Below are positions 2,781-21,957 of a stretch of DNA of 28,274 nucleotides, piece by piece (positions within the stretch are counted from its first letter, which is position 1; each line of letters opens with the position of its first letter). The DNA comes from a virus. The translations under genes were made by a program, and so were the position numbers. The notes under the pieces are model-generated. The model did no database searches. It was not told the DNA's origin and worked only from the letters and a program-made list of their open reading frames with translations. The DNA is taken from the UHGV virus genome UHGV-1752292; one strand, 5' to 3'.

Positions 2781-4734
2781 TTAATACAGGTGGAATCGTT
2801 GAGCTTTGACGCTGCTCTTCAGTATAGACTTCACCAGTCTCACGGTCAAACACTTCATCCTCATAATGTGGCAAAGAGTCATCATAATGGTCTTCAGCTT
2901 CACCAATACCAAACTGTTGGCGAATATTTTCTGCTGCACCATCAATATCAACACCACATCCAGAAGCTTTGATAAGACGTCCTGTATCTGGATTGTACCA
3001 AGTATGACCAGCAATACCTGTTGATTTACCATGACGACGACACTTAGTTAACTTGATTTTTGTCAAGTTTTTCTTAACAGGGTCTGGGTCAACCTTGTTA
3101 CGCATTAACAGAATGTTGTTCATAGAAATCTGGAAATACGCACCAGAGCCTTTAATATCCTCTTCAGAGATATCTCCACCTTCAGAGTTAGCCTTCTGAC
3201 CACCTGCACTCTTACGAACGTGACAGACGTTCACTTGTGCATACTGGTAGCGTTTGCAACGACGCAATAGCTCAGATAAAACTTCCTCTTCATCCGTATC
3301 TGAACGTGACAGAGCCAACGTAATAGGGTCAAGAATAATAATCTTACAGTCTAAGCTGTTAACAAGATAGTCAACAAACTCCAGCAAGTTATCTTGGTCA
3401 ATTGCCCCTTGATGGTCTACGATGTGGATACGACGACCTTTAGATAGTTCTGCGTGTGCTTCCTTCAATTCATCCCAATCACGTTCGTCATAAGGAATCT
3501 CAGCAATCTGCTTGCTAAGGTGGATTGCACAGAGCATCTCCATCAACTCTTCATAGGTATCCTCTACAGGAATTACACCAATATTGTAATCGGTATCTTT
3601 CCAAGCTGTGTAAATCATTTCACGAGTGTATGCTGATTTACCCACTGAAGATGGTGCTGCCAGAGTTGTAATCTCACCTAGACCATAACCACCATAAGTC
3701 AGCCTGTTCAAATCTCCGAAAGATTCTGGGAAAGGAATCAATGGAATCTGACCACGGTTCTTCATTGCCTCAAAACCATCTGCAAAGTTCTTGATACCAG
3801 CAGGGCAGTAACGAGGTGCATTGTAGATACGCTGCTTAAACCCTTCAAGAACTGTATCTTTCTCTTTATAGAACTTTGTCCACCATTCGTTAAGGTCTTT
3901 TACACCTTCTGGATACTGGAATAAACGAACCTTCTCAATAGGGAGAATGCCAGCAGCCTCTTTAGTGGCTTTAGCACCTGCTTCATCGTTATCAAAGCAC
4001 AAGTAAATCTCATCAAATGATGTGATGTACTGATAGTTGTCTTTGATAGACTTAATGTTTGCACCCGATGGAACAGATACGTGACAGTAATTCTTACGAC
4101 GAGACTTGTCCTTAATCGCAAGAGAAGTCATATAGATTGCTGTCGCACATTCCATCTCACCTTCCCAGATGAAGAGACGGTTACCACCTTCTGGAGCAAT
4201 CCATGAGCCGAACATTGCCAGTTCACCTTTAATGTCTCCAACACCACCAGAAAAGTCTTTTAACTTACCACGTAGGTGCTCTTTTGGGTGGTCTTCTGGG
4301 TAACGGTGACGAACACGGTAGCCAACATGCTCTAGCTTGCCATCTTCATTGCGTTTGTAAGTTGGGTAGAAATGCGCATCAATTTCACCATCACTGTCAA
4401 TATCAACCTTAATACCCAAACGCTCAAGAACTTTTGCAGGAATCTTCCTGTCTTTCAAGTCCATTGCTTCAAGGTTTTCTTTCACATCGTCTAAATCCAT
4501 TCCACGGAAAGTACGGTTTTTATTGTCTGAACCAGTAGAATAAGTGCTCACGATTTGTCCTTTATCAAAATCCCACTCTGGGAAACCTTTGTTACAACTA
4601 AAGCAAGTCATTGAATAAGAATCATCGTCATGATGATAGATTGAACCAGCATCTGATGAACCACAACGTGGACATGCACAATGACCAACAAACTGACCAG
4701 CCTCTTTCAATTTACGACCTTTAGACATTAGCAC
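2743..4734 (-). CDS. Bifunctional DNA primase-helicase (T7 gp4-like)
   Basis: 663 aa; N-terminal Cys4 zinc ribbon (CPRCGSSD…CFSCNKGF) resembling the T7 gp4 primase Zn motif; central acidic TOPRIM-like region; C-terminal DnaB-like helicase with Walker A (APSSVGKSAYT) and Walker B-like IILDPIT. Confidence 0.85.
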   Translation of the reverse strand: MLMSKGRKLKEAGQFVGHCACPRCGSSDAGSIYHHDDDSYSMTCFSCNKGFPEWDFDKGQIVSTYSTGSDNKNRTFRGMDLDDVKENLEAMDLKDRKIPAKVLERLGIKVDIDSDGEIDAHFYPTYKRNEDGKLEHVGYRVRHRYPEDHPKEHLRGKLKDFSGGVGDIKGELAMFGSWIAPEGGNRLFIWEGEMECATAIYMTSLAIKDKSRRKNYCHVSVPSGANIKSIKDNYQYITSFDEIYLCFDNDEAGAKATKEAAGILPIEKVRLFQYPEGVKDLNEWWTKFYKEKDTVLEGFKQRIYNAPRYCPAGIKNFADGFEAMKNRGQIPLIPFPESFGDLNRLTYGGYGLGEITTLAAPSSVGKSAYTREMIYTAWKDTDYNIGVIPVEDTYEELMEMLCAIHLSKQIAEIPYDERDWDELKEAHAELSKGRRIHIVDHQGAIDQDNLLEFVDYLVNSLDCKIIILDPITLALSRSDTDEEEVLSELLRRCKRYQYAQVNVCHVRKSAGGQKANSEGGDISEEDIKGSGAYFQISMNNILLMRNKVDPDPVKKNLTKIKLTKCRRHGKSTGIAGHTWYNPDTGRLIKASGCGVDIDGAAENIRQQFGIGEAEDHYDDSLPHYEDEVFDRETGEVYTEEQRQSSTIPPVLSEDADDCPFETE

Positions 4735-16585: not shown

Positions 16586-17485
16586 ATGTCACAAGCAGAT
16601 ACAAGTTACAAAAATATCCTGAACCATGTTTTATCAGTCGGTGAACTGCGTACTACACGAACTGGAGACGTTATCTCTGCATTTGCTCCACCACAATTTC
16701 GTTTTGATATGAGAACTGGTTTCCCACTCTTAACATCTAAACAGGTGTTTACACGGCAAGTTATTGGGGAAGCTCTATGGTTCCTGAATGGTGAGAATAA
16801 ACTTGGTGAACTCCGTTACCGCACTTGGGGTGAAAATGATGGGGAACGCTGGACTATCTGGTCAGATGATTTTAAACGCTGGTTAAGCTCTAATTATTCT
16901 TCTGAACAAGATTGGTTAGAAGATGCAGGTGGAAGAATCTACGGAGTTCAGTGGAGAAACTTTGAAGGCCATAATGGTTGTGTTGTAGACCAACTAGAGA
17001 CCTTAGTAACGAAGATGAAAGGTGATATCACAGACCGTTACATGCTTGTTAATGCTTGGAATGCAGCAGATATTGCAGCAAACTCAATGGCTTTAGCACC
17101 TTGTCACGTTCTGTTTCAGATTTATATCACTAACGAGGGTGAAGTTGATTTGCAATGGTATCAGCGTTCAGTAGACACCTTTTTAGGACTCCCGTTTAAT
17201 ATTGCATCTTATGGTTTTATTCTGGAAGTTCTTTGCAAGATGACTGGATACACTCCACGGTACTTGATAGGTGTCTTTGGAGATACTCAGATTTATCAGA
17301 ACCATATGAAACAGGTTTATGAACTGATGAACAATGAAGAGTTCCATGCACCTACTTTTGAGATTGGTGTGCAGCTTAACACTCTAAGTGACCTTAAACA
17401 TCTTACTGCAAGTGATTTTATTGGTGGCATTAACAACTACCAACATGCAGGGAAGATTGAAGCACCTTTATCAGTAGGCAAGTAA
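16586..17485 (+). CDS. thyA: Thymidylate synthase
   Basis: 299 aa; active-site ALAPCHVLFQ (Pro-Cys-His) and conserved DLQWYQRS-type region; immediately downstream of DHFR as in T4 frd-td. Confidence 0.85.
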   Translation: MSQADTSYKNILNHVLSVGELRTTRTGDVISAFAPPQFRFDMRTGFPLLTSKQVFTRQVIGEALWFLNGENKLGELRYRTWGENDGERWTIWSDDFKRWLSSNYSSEQDWLEDAGGRIYGVQWRNFEGHNGCVVDQLETLVTKMKGDITDRYMLVNAWNAADIAANSMALAPCHVLFQIYITNEGEVDLQWYQRSVDTFLGLPFNIASYGFILEVLCKMTGYTPRYLIGVFGDTQIYQNHMKQVYELMNNEEFHAPTFEIGVQLNTLSDLKHLTASDFIGGINNYQHAGKIEAPLSVGK

Positions 17486-17529
17486 AACAAAAAAAGGCTC
17501 CCGTAAAAAGGAGCCTTAAACTTTATTTT
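17484..17529. terminator. Bidirectional intrinsic terminator between convergent operons
   Basis: Hairpin AAGGCTCC - 8-nt loop - GGAGCCTT (17494-17517) between the thymidylate synthase stop (17485) and the stop of the minus-strand 123-aa gene (17523). Minus-strand RNA gets a direct U-run (A-run 17484-17493); plus-strand RNA gets TTTATTTTT slightly downstream. Confidence 0.6.
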
Positions 17530-17894
17530 TCAGTATTCTTTGTGTTCTTTTCAGTAATAGCTTGGAGGGCTGATACTGATTGAGCCAGATTGTTCACACT
17601 ATCAGAGAATTTATCAAGAGTCTTAGTAAGTTTTGCGTTCTCACCCTTAACATTCTCTAACTGGACTTTCTGGTTCTCCATCCCTAGCTGAAGCAGCCTC
17701 ATATCAGACTGTAAATCACGAATAGCTGAATAATTACTTTTGGAATAATTATCTAACTGCTGTAACTTTGTTGTGATAGACACTTCTTGCTTACCATCCG
17801 AGACTTGCATGGTGGTATACATCCCAATAACACTAAAAATACCAACTACAATTGCACCAATATTATTTTTAAAAGCTTCCTCCAGCCACTTCAT
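17523..17894 (-). CDS. Membrane-anchored coiled-coil protein (possible spanin-like or lysis-associated)
   Basis: 123 aa; N-terminal hydrophobic helix (IGAIVVGIFSVIGMYTT) then Gln/Leu-rich coiled-coil-like sequence; last gene of the late operon; start overlaps the previous stop (ATGA). Confidence 0.4.
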   Translation of the reverse strand: MKWLEEAFKNNIGAIVVGIFSVIGMYTTMQVSDGKQEVSITTKLQQLDNYSKSNYSAIRDLQSDMRLLQLGMENQKVQLENVKGENAKLTKTLDKFSDSVNNLAQSVSALQAITEKNTKNTEK

Positions 17895-18088: not shown

Positions 18089-18107
18089 TTAATCACCTCA
18101 TCAGCCA

Positions 18108-18147
18108 AGATGGTGAGAATATCCATAAAGAATATTAACACCATCTT
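18108..18147 (-). other. Perfect 9-bp inverted repeat (hairpin) between tail fiber and small membrane-protein genes
   Basis: AAGATGGTG (18108-18116) / CACCATCTT (18139-18147) with a 22-nt AT-rich loop; no adjacent U-run, so probably a processing or regulatory hairpin rather than a terminator. Confidence 0.35.
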
Positions 18148-18167
18148 AACAATCAGTCAATAAGGGA

Positions 18168-20738
18168 TTAAGCAGTTCTTACCCAAGCCATTAACTTATA
18201 GAACTGGTTAGTAACACTAAATGCCGAACCAGAACCTGTACTACCAGTGTTACCACTAACTGTGTGGCTGTGAGCACCAATACCTACAGAGTGGGAATGG
18301 TCGCCAGCACCGCTTGTAGTACCAGACCATGTATGTGTATGGTCACCAGTTGTGTTGGTGTTAGGGAACTTGTTATCCTTTCTGTCAAGCCAGTCAAGTG
18401 TTCTAGGCAGACCGTTACCAATGGTTGTATACCCGTACAAAGCATCACCGCCGTTAACTAATAGTAGACCTAAGTGATGAGCGTGGTTACCAGCAGCACT
18501 TGTTGTACCACTTACAGAGTGAGCATGACCACCAGTACTGTTAGTTCCCTTTGTACCATAATCAAAAGATGAAGTGGTAGCAGAGAAACTGTGAGTGTGC
18601 GATGGTAAATTACCAACAGCTAACGTTACAGAATCTGAACCACCAGTTGTAGCAACATCTGAACCGTTTGCTGCTGCGATTCTGATAGTTCTACCAACAC
18701 CATTGTTCAGGTACGTCCAAGTTAGACCAGGAAGTGCTGTATTAGGGTCAACATTACTGTTAAACCACGTTACAATACCTACTGGATAGATTTTGTTAAG
18801 GTCTGTAGAGTCACTAATTGCCTGTGCAATCTTCTGGTCAGTTTCTGATTTAGTATATGCACCAATATCTGAAGGTGTTGGCTTCAAGAGACTAGTGTAA
18901 TAGTAAGCAATTGTGCCAGCAACATAGCCAGATGGAGCGTTGTCAGATGTCTCTGGAGTCTCAAACAATTGTACTGCTGCATTAGATGATGACTGAACCC
19001 TAGCTGTCATAGCGTTTAGATAGCCACCAACTACGCAATAAATGTCATAGTTAACACCTCTGGTGTTAACATACCCAATTTGGGTTACAACAGCATTCGG
19101 TGAGTTTTTCCATGCAACAACATTTAAGCCTTTTGGGTTACCATTCCCTGTCCTAAGAACAATTTCTGTTTTACAGGCTTGGTCAATTACGCCAAAGTTA
19201 AATCCAGCCCCCCCAAACAGTTCAATCACTGCTGTTGATGTGCCCTGCGGCATACTGACAGTAGCAATCTTAGCCCATTTAATATCACCACCAGTATTGA
19301 ATCCGGTGCTTCTTACTCTCAGATACCTATTATCAGCAGATGATTTGTTATAGTATCGGTCATCAATGTTAGTCCAATCAGAAGGTTGAACTTGACCATT
19401 AACTCTGACTGTTTTGTTCAGTAAGAAGTCATCTTGCATGAAGATAGTAGTACCAGCCCTATCATTGTGAATAATGAATTTAGATGGGTTTTCTCTTTCG
19501 CCATTCCCGATGTACCACCTTCTCACATTATCAGCGTTATAACCAGCAAAGTATAGTGCATTATCCTGAACAGTGTTTCTTAGCTGTAACGATAGGTCAT
19601 CTTGGAGAATAACTTGTGTAGACCTGAAAATGTTCATGTTACTGAGTTTAGCAAGATTACTCAAAGTTCCTGCTGGAATGTATCTAGAGTCAATGTTAGT
19701 CCAATCAGAAGGTTGAACTTGACCAACAACCCTAAGCTGCTTGTTAAATTCAGCATAACCATTATCAAGTCTAAGATTAGTGTTATATACATAGTTGTGA
19801 ATGAATACAGCAGGTGTAGCATCACCATTACCTACAAACCACCTATCAGAGTCATCATAACTTTCACCTTTGATGTATAGCGAAGACTTTGCTATAGGAC
19901 TTTTTAACCTTAAAGCAGCACTGTCACTGATGATGGTTAGAATTCTGCTAAACGTGTTCGCGCCACTGAAAGTATTATCACCATTTAACTGTGCAAATCT
20001 CTGATTAGCTGCTGTCTGAGTAAAGTATCTAGCATCTAAGTTAGAGAAGTCAGAGGGTTGTACTTGACCAGTGATTGATAAAGACCTATTAACAGAGATA
20101 TTACTTGCAACAGTCAAGGCTGAATTATATTTGTTATTGTACAGCTTCACTTCATTAGAGCCATTACTACCAACACCAACCCACCATCTAGCCGAACCAT
20201 CTAGGTCTACACCTTCAATATATTGTGCATTATTTGCATTTTGGCTTCTAAGGTGAAGTAAGTTACCATCCCCTTGAATTCGCTGAGACCCAGAGAATGT
20301 GTTTGTTACAGCAAGCCTTGCATATCTTGCATCATTCTCTTCATTAGTTCTCATCCCAAGTTCATTAGGGCTTGGCTTATTCAGAGTATGATAAACAGTT
20401 GCCGACCTTGAAGCATCTGCAATAGTTAGTCTAAGGCCGTTTGCGTTGATTTTAAAAGTCTTTAAAACATCCCCAATAGTAATCTCAGAAGAGCCTGTTG
20501 GGTCAAATACTGCCTTACCACCATAAAGTAACTTAACAATACCTAAATCCCCAGTCATAGTGCTTCCAGCAATCTGAACAAACCTTTCTAGTTTGAAGGA
20601 AGCTAAGAAGTCTTGATAAGTCATTCGACGGTCTTCATCACCAAGCATTTCAGGTCTCTTTTTAACCCTAACATGAAGAAGGTCATCTGAACGGATTGTA
20701 TCGATTGAGTTTAATTCACTCAACTTGTAATCTGTCAT
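18168..20738 (-). CDS. Tail fiber protein (long, with internal tandem repeats and His-rich C-terminal tip)
   Basis: 856 aa; three ~105-aa tandem repeats each ending in GQVQPSD(W/F)(T/S)N(I/L)D.RY; C-terminal HxH-rich region (HTHSFS…GGHAHSVSG…GNHAHHLG…GDHSHSVGIGAHSHTVSG) with SFDYGTKG motif; AGAGGAAAA RBS. Confidence 0.7.
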   Translation of the reverse strand: MTDYKLSELNSIDTIRSDDLLHVRVKKRPEMLGDEDRRMTYQDFLASFKLERFVQIAGSTMTGDLGIVKLLYGGKAVFDPTGSSEITIGDVLKTFKINANGLRLTIADASRSATVYHTLNKPSPNELGMRTNEENDARYARLAVTNTFSGSQRIQGDGNLLHLRSQNANNAQYIEGVDLDGSARWWVGVGSNGSNEVKLYNNKYNSALTVASNISVNRSLSITGQVQPSDFSNLDARYFTQTAANQRFAQLNGDNTFSGANTFSRILTIISDSAALRLKSPIAKSSLYIKGESYDDSDRWFVGNGDATPAVFIHNYVYNTNLRLDNGYAEFNKQLRVVGQVQPSDWTNIDSRYIPAGTLSNLAKLSNMNIFRSTQVILQDDLSLQLRNTVQDNALYFAGYNADNVRRWYIGNGERENPSKFIIHNDRAGTTIFMQDDFLLNKTVRVNGQVQPSDWTNIDDRYYNKSSADNRYLRVRSTGFNTGGDIKWAKIATVSMPQGTSTAVIELFGGAGFNFGVIDQACKTEIVLRTGNGNPKGLNVVAWKNSPNAVVTQIGYVNTRGVNYDIYCVVGGYLNAMTARVQSSSNAAVQLFETPETSDNAPSGYVAGTIAYYYTSLLKPTPSDIGAYTKSETDQKIAQAISDSTDLNKIYPVGIVTWFNSNVDPNTALPGLTWTYLNNGVGRTIRIAAANGSDVATTGGSDSVTLAVGNLPSHTHSFSATTSSFDYGTKGTNSTGGHAHSVSGTTSAAGNHAHHLGLLLVNGGDALYGYTTIGNGLPRTLDWLDRKDNKFPNTNTTGDHTHTWSGTTSGAGDHSHSVGIGAHSHTVSGNTGSTGSGSAFSVTNQFYKLMAWVRTA

Positions 20739-20753
20739 TATAAATTTTCCTCT

Positions 20754-20775
20754 AAAAAGGGGCTACCAAGCCCCT
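20754..20775 (-). terminator. Intrinsic terminator between the two tail fiber genes (minus strand)
   Basis: AGGGGCT - acca - AGCCCCT (7-bp GC-rich stem); on the minus-strand RNA it is followed by UUUU. Probably partial, since the long fiber gene starts 16 nt downstream. Confidence 0.45.
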
Positions 20776-20784
20776 GTAAAGAAA

Positions 20785-21957
20785 TTAAGCTGTTCTCTGC
20801 CATACATACAGGACGAAGGATGGCTGTTCAATATTAACCGCCTGACCTCCACCAACACTATTTGTGTTTCCACTATGTGTATGCTCAGAAGAAGAAACTA
20901 CCACAGTGCCACTATGTGTATGTGAACCAATACCGACTGTGTGGCTGTGAGCACCAATACCAACTGCGTGGCTGTGGTTACCAGATGCACCAGATGTAAC
21001 GCTAAAACTGTGTGAGTGTGCACCGTCACTAGATGTCCTTGATGTTCTCCATGCACCACCACCATTAGAGTCAGCTACAGCATTACCAGTACCATCATTT
21101 TCTCTAGGGTACACATCATGGTTGTGAGTGCCATCTGTACTTGTGTTACCTGATACGTTGTGTGTATGGTTACCAGTTGTATTAGTCTCTTTTGTTCCAT
21201 AGTCGAAAGAGCTGGTAGCCTTAGTTCCATAGTCAAAAGCTGAAATTGACACAGTTGCATTATGAGTGTGACCACCACCACTAAGAGACACAGAGTGAGA
21301 GTGTTGAGGCATGTTATTAACTGACAAAGTGACAGTTGAAGAACCAAATACAGAACCTGCTGGTCTTGTGTCAGAGTCATAACCAACCAATGCTCTACCT
21401 TTTGAAACTAACTCCCAAGTACCTCCACAAATTAAATATGTAGAAGGGTTTGCAGAGTTCATGGAAAGATGGATAGTACCTACTGGATAGGAAGCCTGAA
21501 CAGCCTTGTACAAGTTATTTACTGCTCTTGCTGTAGCGTACTTATCTGCATCTTCGTTATAAAGGTTAGATGTTGTCCAGTTCTGAACATTACTTAAACC
21601 AACCTGTGCCTTAGTTGTATTGTGTGGGTTACTCTTGTCCTTGATATGCTGTTGAATAAGATTATTAACCTCTTCTGAAGACATAATCTGTAGATTTGCT
21701 CTTGCCTCAGCTACATTAACAATATCTGATAAGTTATTTGCAGCAACTAACTGAAGAGCATTAATAACATTATCTAAACCAATTTGTGTTTTAGTAACAC
21801 CATGAGGGTTATTTCTTAGGCTTGAGTGTGGAGCAAGTAATTGCTCAAGAGTGCATCTCTTATCCTCAATACCCTGCTTAAGATGGAAGATATCACTAAG
21901 GTCAATTGGTAAGGCTGCTTGAGGTAAGGCACTAATTTGAATTTCACCTACTGCCAT
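20785..21957 (-). CDS. Tail fiber protein (short paralog with His-rich C-terminal tip)
   Basis: 390 aa; C-terminal HxH repeats (HSHSVSLSGGGHTHNAT…GNHTHNVSG…GAHSHSFSV…GNHSHAVGIGAHSHTVGIGSHTHSG), duplicated SFDYGTK motif, and C-terminus …WQRTA paralleling …WVRTA of the 856-aa fiber. Confidence 0.7.
   Translation of the reverse strand: MAVGEIQISALPQAALPIDLSDIFHLKQGIEDKRCTLEQLLAPHSSLRNNPHGVTKTQIGLDNVINALQLVAANNLSDIVNVAEARANLQIMSSEEVNNLIQQHIKDKSNPHNTTKAQVGLSNVQNWTTSNLYNEDADKYATARAVNNLYKAVQASYPVGTIHLSMNSANPSTYLICGGTWELVSKGRALVGYDSDTRPAGSVFGSSTVTLSVNNMPQHSHSVSLSGGGHTHNATVSISAFDYGTKATSSFDYGTKETNTTGNHTHNVSGNTSTDGTHNHDVYPRENDGTGNAVADSNGGGAWRTSRTSSDGAHSHSFSVTSGASGNHSHAVGIGAHSHTVGIGSHTHSGTVVVSSSEHTHSGNTNSVGGGQAVNIEQPSFVLYVWQRTA

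Follow-up and report, generated by a model that had tools for sequence, protein, structure and literature searches.

Two tail fibres with T4 gp37-like tips in a Felixounavirus and the probable origin of their diversity at conserved seams

Phages of the genus Felixounavirus (Felix O1-like myoviruses) carry two tail fibres with C-termini resembling that of T4 gp37, as described for gp76 and gp77 of Felix O1 (Whichard et al. 2010, PMC3185647) and for gp74 and gp75 of VpaE1 (Simoliunas et al. 2015, PMC4690856). Phage Sf14 was likewise seen to have two fibres. Cryo-electron microscopy (cryo-EM) of Bas63 displayed the short tail fibre (STF, gp26) and the long tail fibre (LTF, gp27) with collar/needle/head tips and repeated shaft domains; the tip consists of a collar, a six-stranded needle with axis-facing HxH pairs and a small head, from which the chain returns (Sci Adv 2025, PMC12609058). 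Here we analysed the corresponding locus of virus genome UHGV-1752292, namely positions 18168-21957 of a stretch of 28,274 nucleotides (nt), which as a whole is called the window. It contains two adjacent minus-strand open reading frames (ORFs) of 390 and 856 amino acids (aa) with 46 nt between them. We consider it quite probable that they encode two Felixounavirus baseplate fibres with gp37-type tips, whose diversity arises by homologous recombination at conserved seams.

A related case is that of the T-even phages. In their distal fibre genes, short conserved motifs including His boxes reportedly serve as crossover points, a finding ascribed to Tetart et al. in 1996 and to Tetart, Desplats and Krisch in 1998, and the exchanges are said to give swapped or duplicated adhesin segments and an altered host range. 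The locus studied here is alike in that conserved nucleotide motifs flank variable segments and breakpoints lie within the motifs. It differs in that the same logic would extend to three shaft repeats and to two paralogous fibres per genome, and in that it is known from sequences alone. The likeness to the T4 gp37 tip (PDB 2XGF, Bartual et al. 2010) comprises collar, needle and head homology as well as gp37_trimer repeats in the shaft. In T4, however, the tip is mounted on a kinked fibre made of four proteins (gp34-37) with the chaperones gp57A and gp38, whereas here one polypeptide spans the distance from baseplate to tip. Moreover, T4 has one such tip and Felixounavirus two paralogous ones. 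Five neighbouring ORFs scanned against Pfam gave no match to gp38- or gp57A-like chaperones, and the Sf14 paper describes related fibres as a single protein without Mu-type chaperones.

According to the mechanism that we propose, each fibre would be a homotrimer with a C-terminal tip composed of a collar, a six-stranded beta needle carrying HxH motifs along its axis and a small variable head. The head would contact the receptor, by analogy with T4; for the genus this receptor is lipopolysaccharide. The LTF shaft would be built from three gp37_trimer repeat domains and a fourth domain. Homologous recombination between related phages would generate the fibre diversity, with the GQVQPSD.. junctions, the collar block and the SFDYGTK and GIGAHSHTV His boxes as seams, among them an exact 36-nt and an exact 26-nt repeat. 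In nt identity the conserved stretches come roughly up to the genome backbone, at about 85-98% in the N-terminus, the collar block and the C-terminal strands and at 65-93% in the short junctions. As the cassettes are only ~45% identical between alleles, crossovers would resolve only in the conserved seams. Because the three junctions are alike, a cassette could also be copied, out of register, to a different slot, and because STF and LTF share the His boxes, heads could pass between the fibres.

The two fibres and their gp37-like tips

The window shares 93-95% nt identity over 25 kb with Felixounavirus genomes such as VpaE1_ev78, GEC_vB_B1 and SPT-1 and, judged by this similarity, belongs to Felixounavirus. 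Its gene order is a Baseplate_J-like wedge protein (489 aa), a protein of 285-287 aa, a protein of 100 aa, STF, LTF, a 65-aa membrane protein, a 123-aa holin-like protein and the convergent thyA/dhfr genes. The same order is found in annotated Felixounavirus relatives, with a typical STF of ~390 aa and a typical LTF of ~780-860 aa. Gene order and genus-level identity identify the two products as counterparts of the Felix O1, VpaE1 and Bas63 fibres (Table 1), with which they share genus, gene order, sizes and gp37-like tips. Repeated beta-rich shaft domains with short conserved motifs between them, conserved N-termini and variable tips are features of Felixounavirus LTFs and occur here as well.

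Alignment of STF and LTF revealed 36% identity across 252 C-terminal aa (E 5e-28). Both aligned with 2XGF, the STF at aa 146-361 (E 1e-26) and the LTF at aa 711-836 (E 3.4e-20), and the motifs SSFDYGTKGTN and HSHSVGIGAH.HTV are common to 2XGF and the fibre tips. SFDYGTK-type motifs are present once in the LTF and twice in the STF (AFDYGTK, SFDYGTK), and the C-termini read ...KLMAWVRTA in the LTF and ...VLYVWQRTA in the STF. A preliminary description of this DNA had proposed two tail fibres with a paralogous His-rich tip, SFDYGTK motifs and similar C-termini (WVRTA/WQRTA), all of which were confirmed; the matches of both tips to 2XGF (3e-20 and 1e-26) speak against unrelated folds of the His-rich regions.

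The HxH motifs of both tips are arranged in two runs that flank a short variable segment. The six motifs of the LTF lie at residues 714, 738 and 752 and then at 800, 814 and 823, with an extra His (HAHH) adjoining the head, while the STF contains nine, four before the head (219, 230, 264, 278) and five after it (314, 328, 337, 346, 359). For comparison, the Bas63 LTF has six (plus HHxH) and its STF seven. The variable stretch (LTF aa 745-808, STF aa ~265-330) would lie in the middle of the His-rich sequence because the chain turns back at the head, as we infer for both fibres from 2XGF and Bas63. In T4, the HxH pairs of the 2XGF needle bind iron. A homotrimer with iron coordination by the His pairs is predicted here by the same analogy. 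The LTF head is, by analogy with T4, a candidate receptor-contact cassette. STF residues 265-330, the least conserved part of this protein (column identity 0.23-0.53 among 38 STFs), are a putative receptor-contact region.

In the LTF shaft, self-alignment detected three tandem repeats (aa 125-236, 237-345 and 346-460) that are 31-38% identical to one another (E 1e-14 to 1e-20). In agreement, Pfam gp37_trimer covers three LTF stretches (E 1.3e-64). Three repeats had been predicted before at ~105 aa; the number is correct, and the size is 109-115 aa. The long form of domain 4 (aa 468-615) had no Pfam match. The collar of the LTF scored 23.3 bits against Pfam Gp10_C, below the 27-bit cut-off, and the collar block aligns with the STF collar. 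The STF itself matched Gp10_C at aa 154-264 (2e-17, 64.8 bits, cut-off 27) and, in a PDB search, also T4 gp10 structures.

Two side observations concern the architecture of the fibres. Domain 4 is dimorphic in the genus: a beta-rich form of ~148 aa occurs in the window phage, Mushroom, JN01 and D1-2, and an unrelated short form of ~75 aa in VpaE1, P54, EC106, vB_SeBD_211 and SUSP1, the last of which matches Pfam gp37_C. The LTF length classes (about 780-795, 812 and 839-858 aa) thus reflect the two unrelated domain 4 forms and the length of the head and not the number of repeats. In the N-terminal part of the STF, a short motif occurs twice, 60 aa apart, as NPHGVTKTQIGLDNV and NPHNTTKAQVGLSNV (21586-21630, aa 110-124; 21766-21810, aa 50-64). 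The fibres of Bas63 are described as having 'triple helix and turn' motifs, to which the pair may correspond.

Variable cassettes, conserved seams and exchange of heads

The LTF gene was compared with those of eight relatives (seven Felixounavirus phages and Suspvirus SUSP1; seven of the eight are cultured isolates), and alleles were typed at 80% identity among 129 LTFs, 9 from phage records and 120 from a large protein collection. The conserved blocks, namely the N-terminus, the collar block and the C-terminal strands, share 84-99% nt identity with the seven Felixounavirus relatives. For the N-terminal region the values are 90-95%, and 73% for SUSP1, and it forms one cluster at 80% aa identity among the 129 LTFs; for aa 616-744 they are 85-94%, and 75% for SUSP1. 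The three short junctions are 65-93% identical to the relatives. The variable segments displayed ~45% nt identity to most relatives and 76-95% to one or two, which are different ones for each segment. The repeat 1 body, for example, is 88-92% identical to D1-2, JN01 and Mushroom and about 45% identical to the other relatives.

Allele typing distinguished 9 types of repeat 1, 18 of repeat 2, 19 of repeat 3, 6 of domain 4 and 15 of the head, and these five variable segments occur in 80 combinations. The allele combination of the window LTF was found in one other protein only, P0001, a metagenome fragment that is also its best full-length match (98%); among deposited phages the best match is about 73%, and the exact sequence is absent from a collection of 15 billion proteins. 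Compared with known Felixounavirus fibres, the window LTF is thus a new allele combination. By these comparisons the LTF is built as a mosaic, in which conserved junctions separate five variable cassettes. The two fibres and parts of the LTF also have different closest relatives: the LTF tip is 96-98% identical to the tips of phages with a far more divergent full-length LTF, and the window STF is 98% identical at the aa level to the tail fibre of phage EC106, whose LTF tip is only 75% identical.

Informative sites placed four breakpoints at nt 681-687, 1013-1059, 1347-1356 and 1893-1920 of the LTF gene (window coordinates in Table 1). All four fall into conserved seams. One copy of the 36-nt repeat encloses the third breakpoint, and the interval of the second overlaps the other copy. 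We infer that crossovers caused the mosaic pattern rather than being merely compatible with it.

Cassettes were not confined to a single slot. Members of one allele family, 90-95% identical at the aa level, are located in slot 1 of some phages and in slot 3 of others, among them the isolate D1-2. In the metagenome-derived contig L044, repeat 1 equals repeat 3 (99.6% over 281 nt; LTF gene nt 436-716 and 1096-1376). In L054, likewise metagenome-derived, slot 3 holds a copy of repeat 2, which forms a perfect tandem duplication of 345 nt with a period of 339 (contig 3669-4393, LTF gene nt 669-1393). These cases suggest that the similar junctions allow copying of cassettes between slots. Together with the position of all four breakpoints in seams and the exchange of cassettes among relatives, they largely support the earlier proposal that the repeats are substrates for recombination.

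Sharing of heads between STF and LTF was most evident in the isolate UAB_Phi87 (Enterobacteria phage, L014, JN225449), whose two fibre genes have 113 identical nt in common and 200 nt at 91%. The 113-nt stretch (STF gene nt 835-947, LTF gene nt 2077-2189) covers the head domain. Within the shared patch, which is bounded by FDYGTK and HSHTVSG, are the outgoing needle, the complete head and the first of the returning strands. Both fibres of this phage may recognise the same receptor. Mushroom has 85% identity between STF and LTF across 195 nt, and in Salmonella phages an STF type of 388 aa has this head allele in common with several LTFs. Over all pairs, STF and LTF tips share 26-55% protein identity.

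Some results weigh against recombination at seams between gp37-type fibres as the explanation of the locus. A swap of tips by means of the shared His motifs, as suggested before, is borne out in UAB_Phi87 and Mushroom, but no recent exchange between its own tips is visible in the window phage, whose best STF/LTF patch is 49 nt at 84%. Many of the comparison sequences are metagenome contigs, in which assembler chimeras are possible at exactly the conserved seams; the core of the mosaic is visible in cultured isolates alone. The sequence data compared, to which no phenotypes are attached, revealed no link between cassettes and host range. Finally, an AlphaFold2 (AF2) monomer model of the whole LTF (43-sequence alignment) reached a mean predicted local distance difference test (pLDDT) score of 52, with moderate values in the three repeats and in domain 4 (beta strands, pLDDT 50-81) and values below 50 in the tip. 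Structure prediction of the C-terminal domains, a check proposed earlier, was therefore uninformative for the tip, while homology to 2XGF supports related tips; the fold is assigned from this homology and from the published Bas63 map. A Foldseek search of the PDB with the AF2 model gave weak, low-TM (template modelling score) matches, including T4 gp34 at E about 1e-3, and was set aside as evidence.

A more far-reaching proposal is that the LTF shaft forms a three-slot combinatorial cassette array, with alleles usable in more than one slot and near-universal linkers of 30-50 nt. The divergence of ~45% nt identity on a 93% backbone would then point to diversifying selection on the shaft domains, and host range would be set by the shaft together with both heads. 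We regard this proposal as doubtful. If true, shaft domains might, for example, be targeted by host defence or attach to surface glycans along the fibre.

Table 1. Features of the fibre locus and their positions in the window
Feature	Position	Strand	Basis and remarks
STF-upstream ORF, 100 aa	21960-22262	minus	Directly upstream of STF; same 100-aa gene in all relatives
STF gene, 390 aa	20785-21957	minus	Counterpart of Felix O1 gp76, VpaE1 gp74 and Bas63 gp26; synteny, homology
STF N-terminal baseplate-binding and shaft part, aa 1-153	21499-21957	minus	Column identity 0.86-0.97 among 38 STFs
STF collar domain, aa 154-264	21166-21498	minus	Gp10_C; alignment to 2XGF collar and T4 gp10; duplicated FDYGTK at end
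STF outgoing needle strands and variable head, aa 265-330	20968-21165	minus	2XGF needle/head alignment
STF returning needle strands with HxH and C-terminus, aa 331-390	20785-20967	minus	Includes 26-nt stretch 20936-20961
GC-rich hairpin and T run	20754-20775	minus	AGGGGCT-TGGT-AGCCCCT; stem 20769-20775 / 20758-20764, loop 20765-20768
LTF gene, 856 aa	18168-20738	minus	Counterpart of Felix O1 gp77, VpaE1 gp75 and Bas63 gp27; Pfam gp37_trimer x3, 2XGF 3e-20
LTF N-terminal attachment region, aa 1-145	20304-20738	minus	Near-invariant
Repeat 1 body, variable cassette, aa 146-220	20079-20303	minus	D1-2/JN01/Mushroom-type allele
Junction 1, conserved, aa 221-255	19974-20078	minus	GQVQPSDFSNLDARYFTQT.ANQRFAQL; holds inferred breakpoint 20052-20058
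Repeat 2 body, variable cassette, aa 256-336	19731-19973	minus	Nearest allele VpaE1-type, 76% nt
Junction 2, aa 337-366	19641-19730	minus	GQVQPSDWTNIDSRYIPAGTLS; holds 36-nt copy 19690-19725; inferred breakpoint interval 19680-19726 overlaps copy
Repeat 3 body, variable cassette, aa 367-445	19404-19640	minus	P54-type allele, 92% nt
Junction 3, aa 446-467	19338-19403	minus	GQVQPSDWTNIDDRYYNKSSADNRY; holds 36-nt copy 19363-19398; inferred breakpoint 19383-19392 inside copy
Domain 4, long form, aa 468-615	18894-19337	minus	Beta-rich; Mushroom-type allele, 90% nt
Linker, collar and outgoing needle strands, conserved, aa 616-744	18507-18893	minus	SFDYGTK, HTH714, HAH738; inferred breakpoint 18819-18846 within
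LTF head, variable cassette, aa 745-808	18315-18506	minus	vB_SeBD_211/P54-type allele, 91-95% nt
LTF returning needle strands and C-terminus, conserved	18168-18314	minus	HSH814, HSH823; includes 26-nt stretch 18259-18284

Intergenic hairpin, repeat number and exact repeats

The terminator-like hairpin that had been noticed between the two fibre genes is present (Table 1). Its stem of 7 bp with 5 GC pairs encloses a 4-nt loop and is located 5 nt upstream of the LTF Shine-Dalgarno sequence AGAGG; its 71-nt context folds with -19 kcal/mol (z = -2.6). The stem is kept in 38 of 38 loci and the loop varies freely. The first T of the run TTTTT doubles as the closing base of the stem, and AGAGG follows the run, leaving fewer than five T in the eight positions after the stem. 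The element thus just misses the T-tract criterion and was not called by the terminator scan. In Table 2 of the Felix O1 study the same element is listed as t76 (gggggctgtacagccctcttt), a predicted rho-independent terminator with -12.5 kcal/mol (PMC3185647). Most likely the hairpin is the t76 counterpart and acts, as predicted, as a weak or leaky intrinsic terminator or as a 3'-end stabiliser of the late transcript; this is the least certain point of our analysis. It is challenged by the divergent loci L035-L038, in which the U tract is lost (CCCCTATAAAGAGG, CCCCTAGAAAGAGG) and both the stem and the Shine-Dalgarno spacing are retained. A U tract that is short here and absent there indicates that termination is not the sole, or not a conserved, role of the hairpin.

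The same loci speak for a serious rival, which we hold tentatively possible: the hairpin would not be a terminator and would instead protect the STF mRNA from 3' exonucleases after processing, or tune translation by setting the accessibility of the LTF ribosome binding site. In the minimum-free-energy fold, UUUCUUUA pairs with UAGAGGAA, which extends the stem and sequesters the Shine-Dalgarno sequence. Moreover, both fibres are arranged around the same six-fold baseplate in the Bas63 virion, so that a large difference in dose is not obviously needed (PMC12609058). Differential expression of the two fibres, suggested earlier on account of the hairpin, would be a possibility that this virion architecture does not require. 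Termination is favoured over this rival by the 4-5 U that follow the hairpin in the window phage and most relatives, by the t76 entry of Felix O1 and by Erwinia phage SunLIRen, in which a different but complementary stem is followed by a long T-rich tract.

It had also been proposed that recombination could alter fibre length. Such a change was not shown: ~180 complete LTFs examined contain three repeats, besides the two-repeat proteins P0092/P0123, and the Bas63 study found no variation in repeat number among species of the ICTV virus taxonomy (PMC12609058). That the two-repeat LTFs are real products of unequal crossover, and that the junction repeats hence change fibre length in nature, appears somewhat unlikely. 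In its favour, P0092/P0123 (745 aa) have an intact frame and two Pfam gp37_trimer matches, and come from three contigs (32.9, 50.5 and 88.8 kb), of which the two retrieved derive from different samples and have normal synteny; the two parts are fused within GGTCAAGTTCAACCTTCTGATTGG.CTAACATTGA, the segment in which the window has its 36-nt repeat. However, apart from an additional 339-nt unit in L054, this contig and the two-repeat contigs are 99.9% identical, and as the perfect 345-nt duplication of L054 exceeds the assembler k-mer (k111), its collapse to one copy is an expected artefact. Cultured phages with a two-repeat form were not found, and apart from three further loci with a shortened ORF all other complete LTFs (about 180) have three units. 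A real deletion is no more likely than collapse, and P0092/P0123 were downgraded as proof of a length change on account of this sister contig. Change in repeat number therefore remains unproven, with no secure variation across the relatives, and the near-constant three-unit LTF suggests selection on fibre length. Repeat-number differences of fibre genes in short-read assemblies can, as a general warning, be collapse artefacts.

The three loci with shortened ORFs belong to otherwise syntenic relatives (L013, L030 (IMG/VR) and L048; 453, 541 and 251 aa). They could reflect frameshifts, sequencing errors or real pseudogenisation.

Exact repeats link the junctions of the LTF with each other and the two tips. 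The 26-nt identity between STF and LTF that had been reported was exact in its coordinates and encodes GIGAHSHT(V). The perfect repeat within the LTF, encoding GQVQPSDWTNID, was correctly described with its spacing of 327 nt and is 36 nt long instead of 35 nt. In 500 synonymous-codon shuffles, in which the proteins were kept and codons drawn according to the usage of these genes, the longest match between STF and LTF had a mean of 14.8 and a maximum of 25, and the longest LTF self-match a mean of 13.3 and a maximum of 29. Neither 26 nor 36 nt was reached in any shuffle (0/500 each), so that the identities exceed what conserved peptides and codon bias yield. Among relatives, exact identity between junctions ranges from 8 to 49 nt and the longest STF/LTF match from 10 to 113 nt, indicating that the particular 36-nt and 26-nt identities are not themselves conserved features. 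This variation, and the fact that no peptide motifs of the fibres are more conserved than those encoded by the two stretches (T4 gp37, too, has kept GIGAH.HTV), would fit passive by-products of purifying selection on GIGAHSHTV and GQVQPSDWTNID and of codon bias with no role in recombination, but such an origin is improbable given the shuffles, the LTF breakpoints in or overlapping both 36-nt copies and the out-of-register copies of relatives, whose ends lie within the same junction motif.

Neighbouring sequences and implications

In Bas63, wedge 2 (489 aa), wedge 1 (285 aa) and a platform protein precede STF and LTF (PMC12609058). By its position, the 100-aa ORF upstream of the STF is a putative counterpart of the Bas63 LTF-platform protein gp25. 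A strong bidirectional terminator-like hairpin at 17494-17517 (AAGGCTCC...GGAGCCTT) with T runs on both strands is located between the convergent holin-like gene (17523-17894, minus) and thyA (16586-17485, plus) and corresponds to t79/t80 of Felix O1 (PMC3185647). The spacer 3' of the LTF stop codon (18089-18167) contains an AT-rich 16-nt inverted repeat (18107-18122 / 18132-18147) without a T tract. It overlaps a promoter-like TTGACT-17-TAATAT sequence (18160-18132, minus strand) that adjoins, upstream, the genes of the 65-aa membrane protein and the holin-like protein. Overall, the promoter/terminator scan gave 15 promoter-like sites versus 13.3 in shuffles, which is no excess. The window contains no tRNA genes, and plus-strand ORFs within the fibre genes were taken as chance ORFs antisense to conserved coding sequence.

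Three database records are probably mislabelled. The 88-kb phage vB_EcoM_P54 (PV390658.1, L002) is listed under Tequatrovirus/Straboviridae and has Felixounavirus synteny. Felixounavirus fibre genes are also found, with 88-89% identity, in GU169904.1 and MG065664.1, which bear the names 'Staphylococcus phage SA1' and 'Campylobacter phage A132'.

The locus is an ordinary one of a kind already known, with a new allele combination. Its fibres, gp37-like tips and hairpin have been described for Felix O1-like phages, and the main value of the finding is that it is recognised as ordinary. For the genus, the literature searched was not found to describe a cassette-by-cassette mosaic, a three-slot cassette structure whose seams are mapped, copying across slots or the sharing of heads between STF and LTF, and a PhageMaP preprint on Bas63 contains nothing on the fibre genes. 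Mosaic, cross-slot copying and head sharing are modest extensions of what is known, drawn in part from metagenome contigs that may be chimeric at the seams. The seams (GQVQPSD junctions, the start of the collar block, SFDYGTK and GIGAHSHTV) would be naturally used splice points for host-range engineering, which are useful since this phage group is widely used against Salmonella and E. coli. To judge from sequence comparison, the cross-slot copies suggest that shaft cassettes tolerate other slots, and the shared head allele suggests that a head can work on either fibre.

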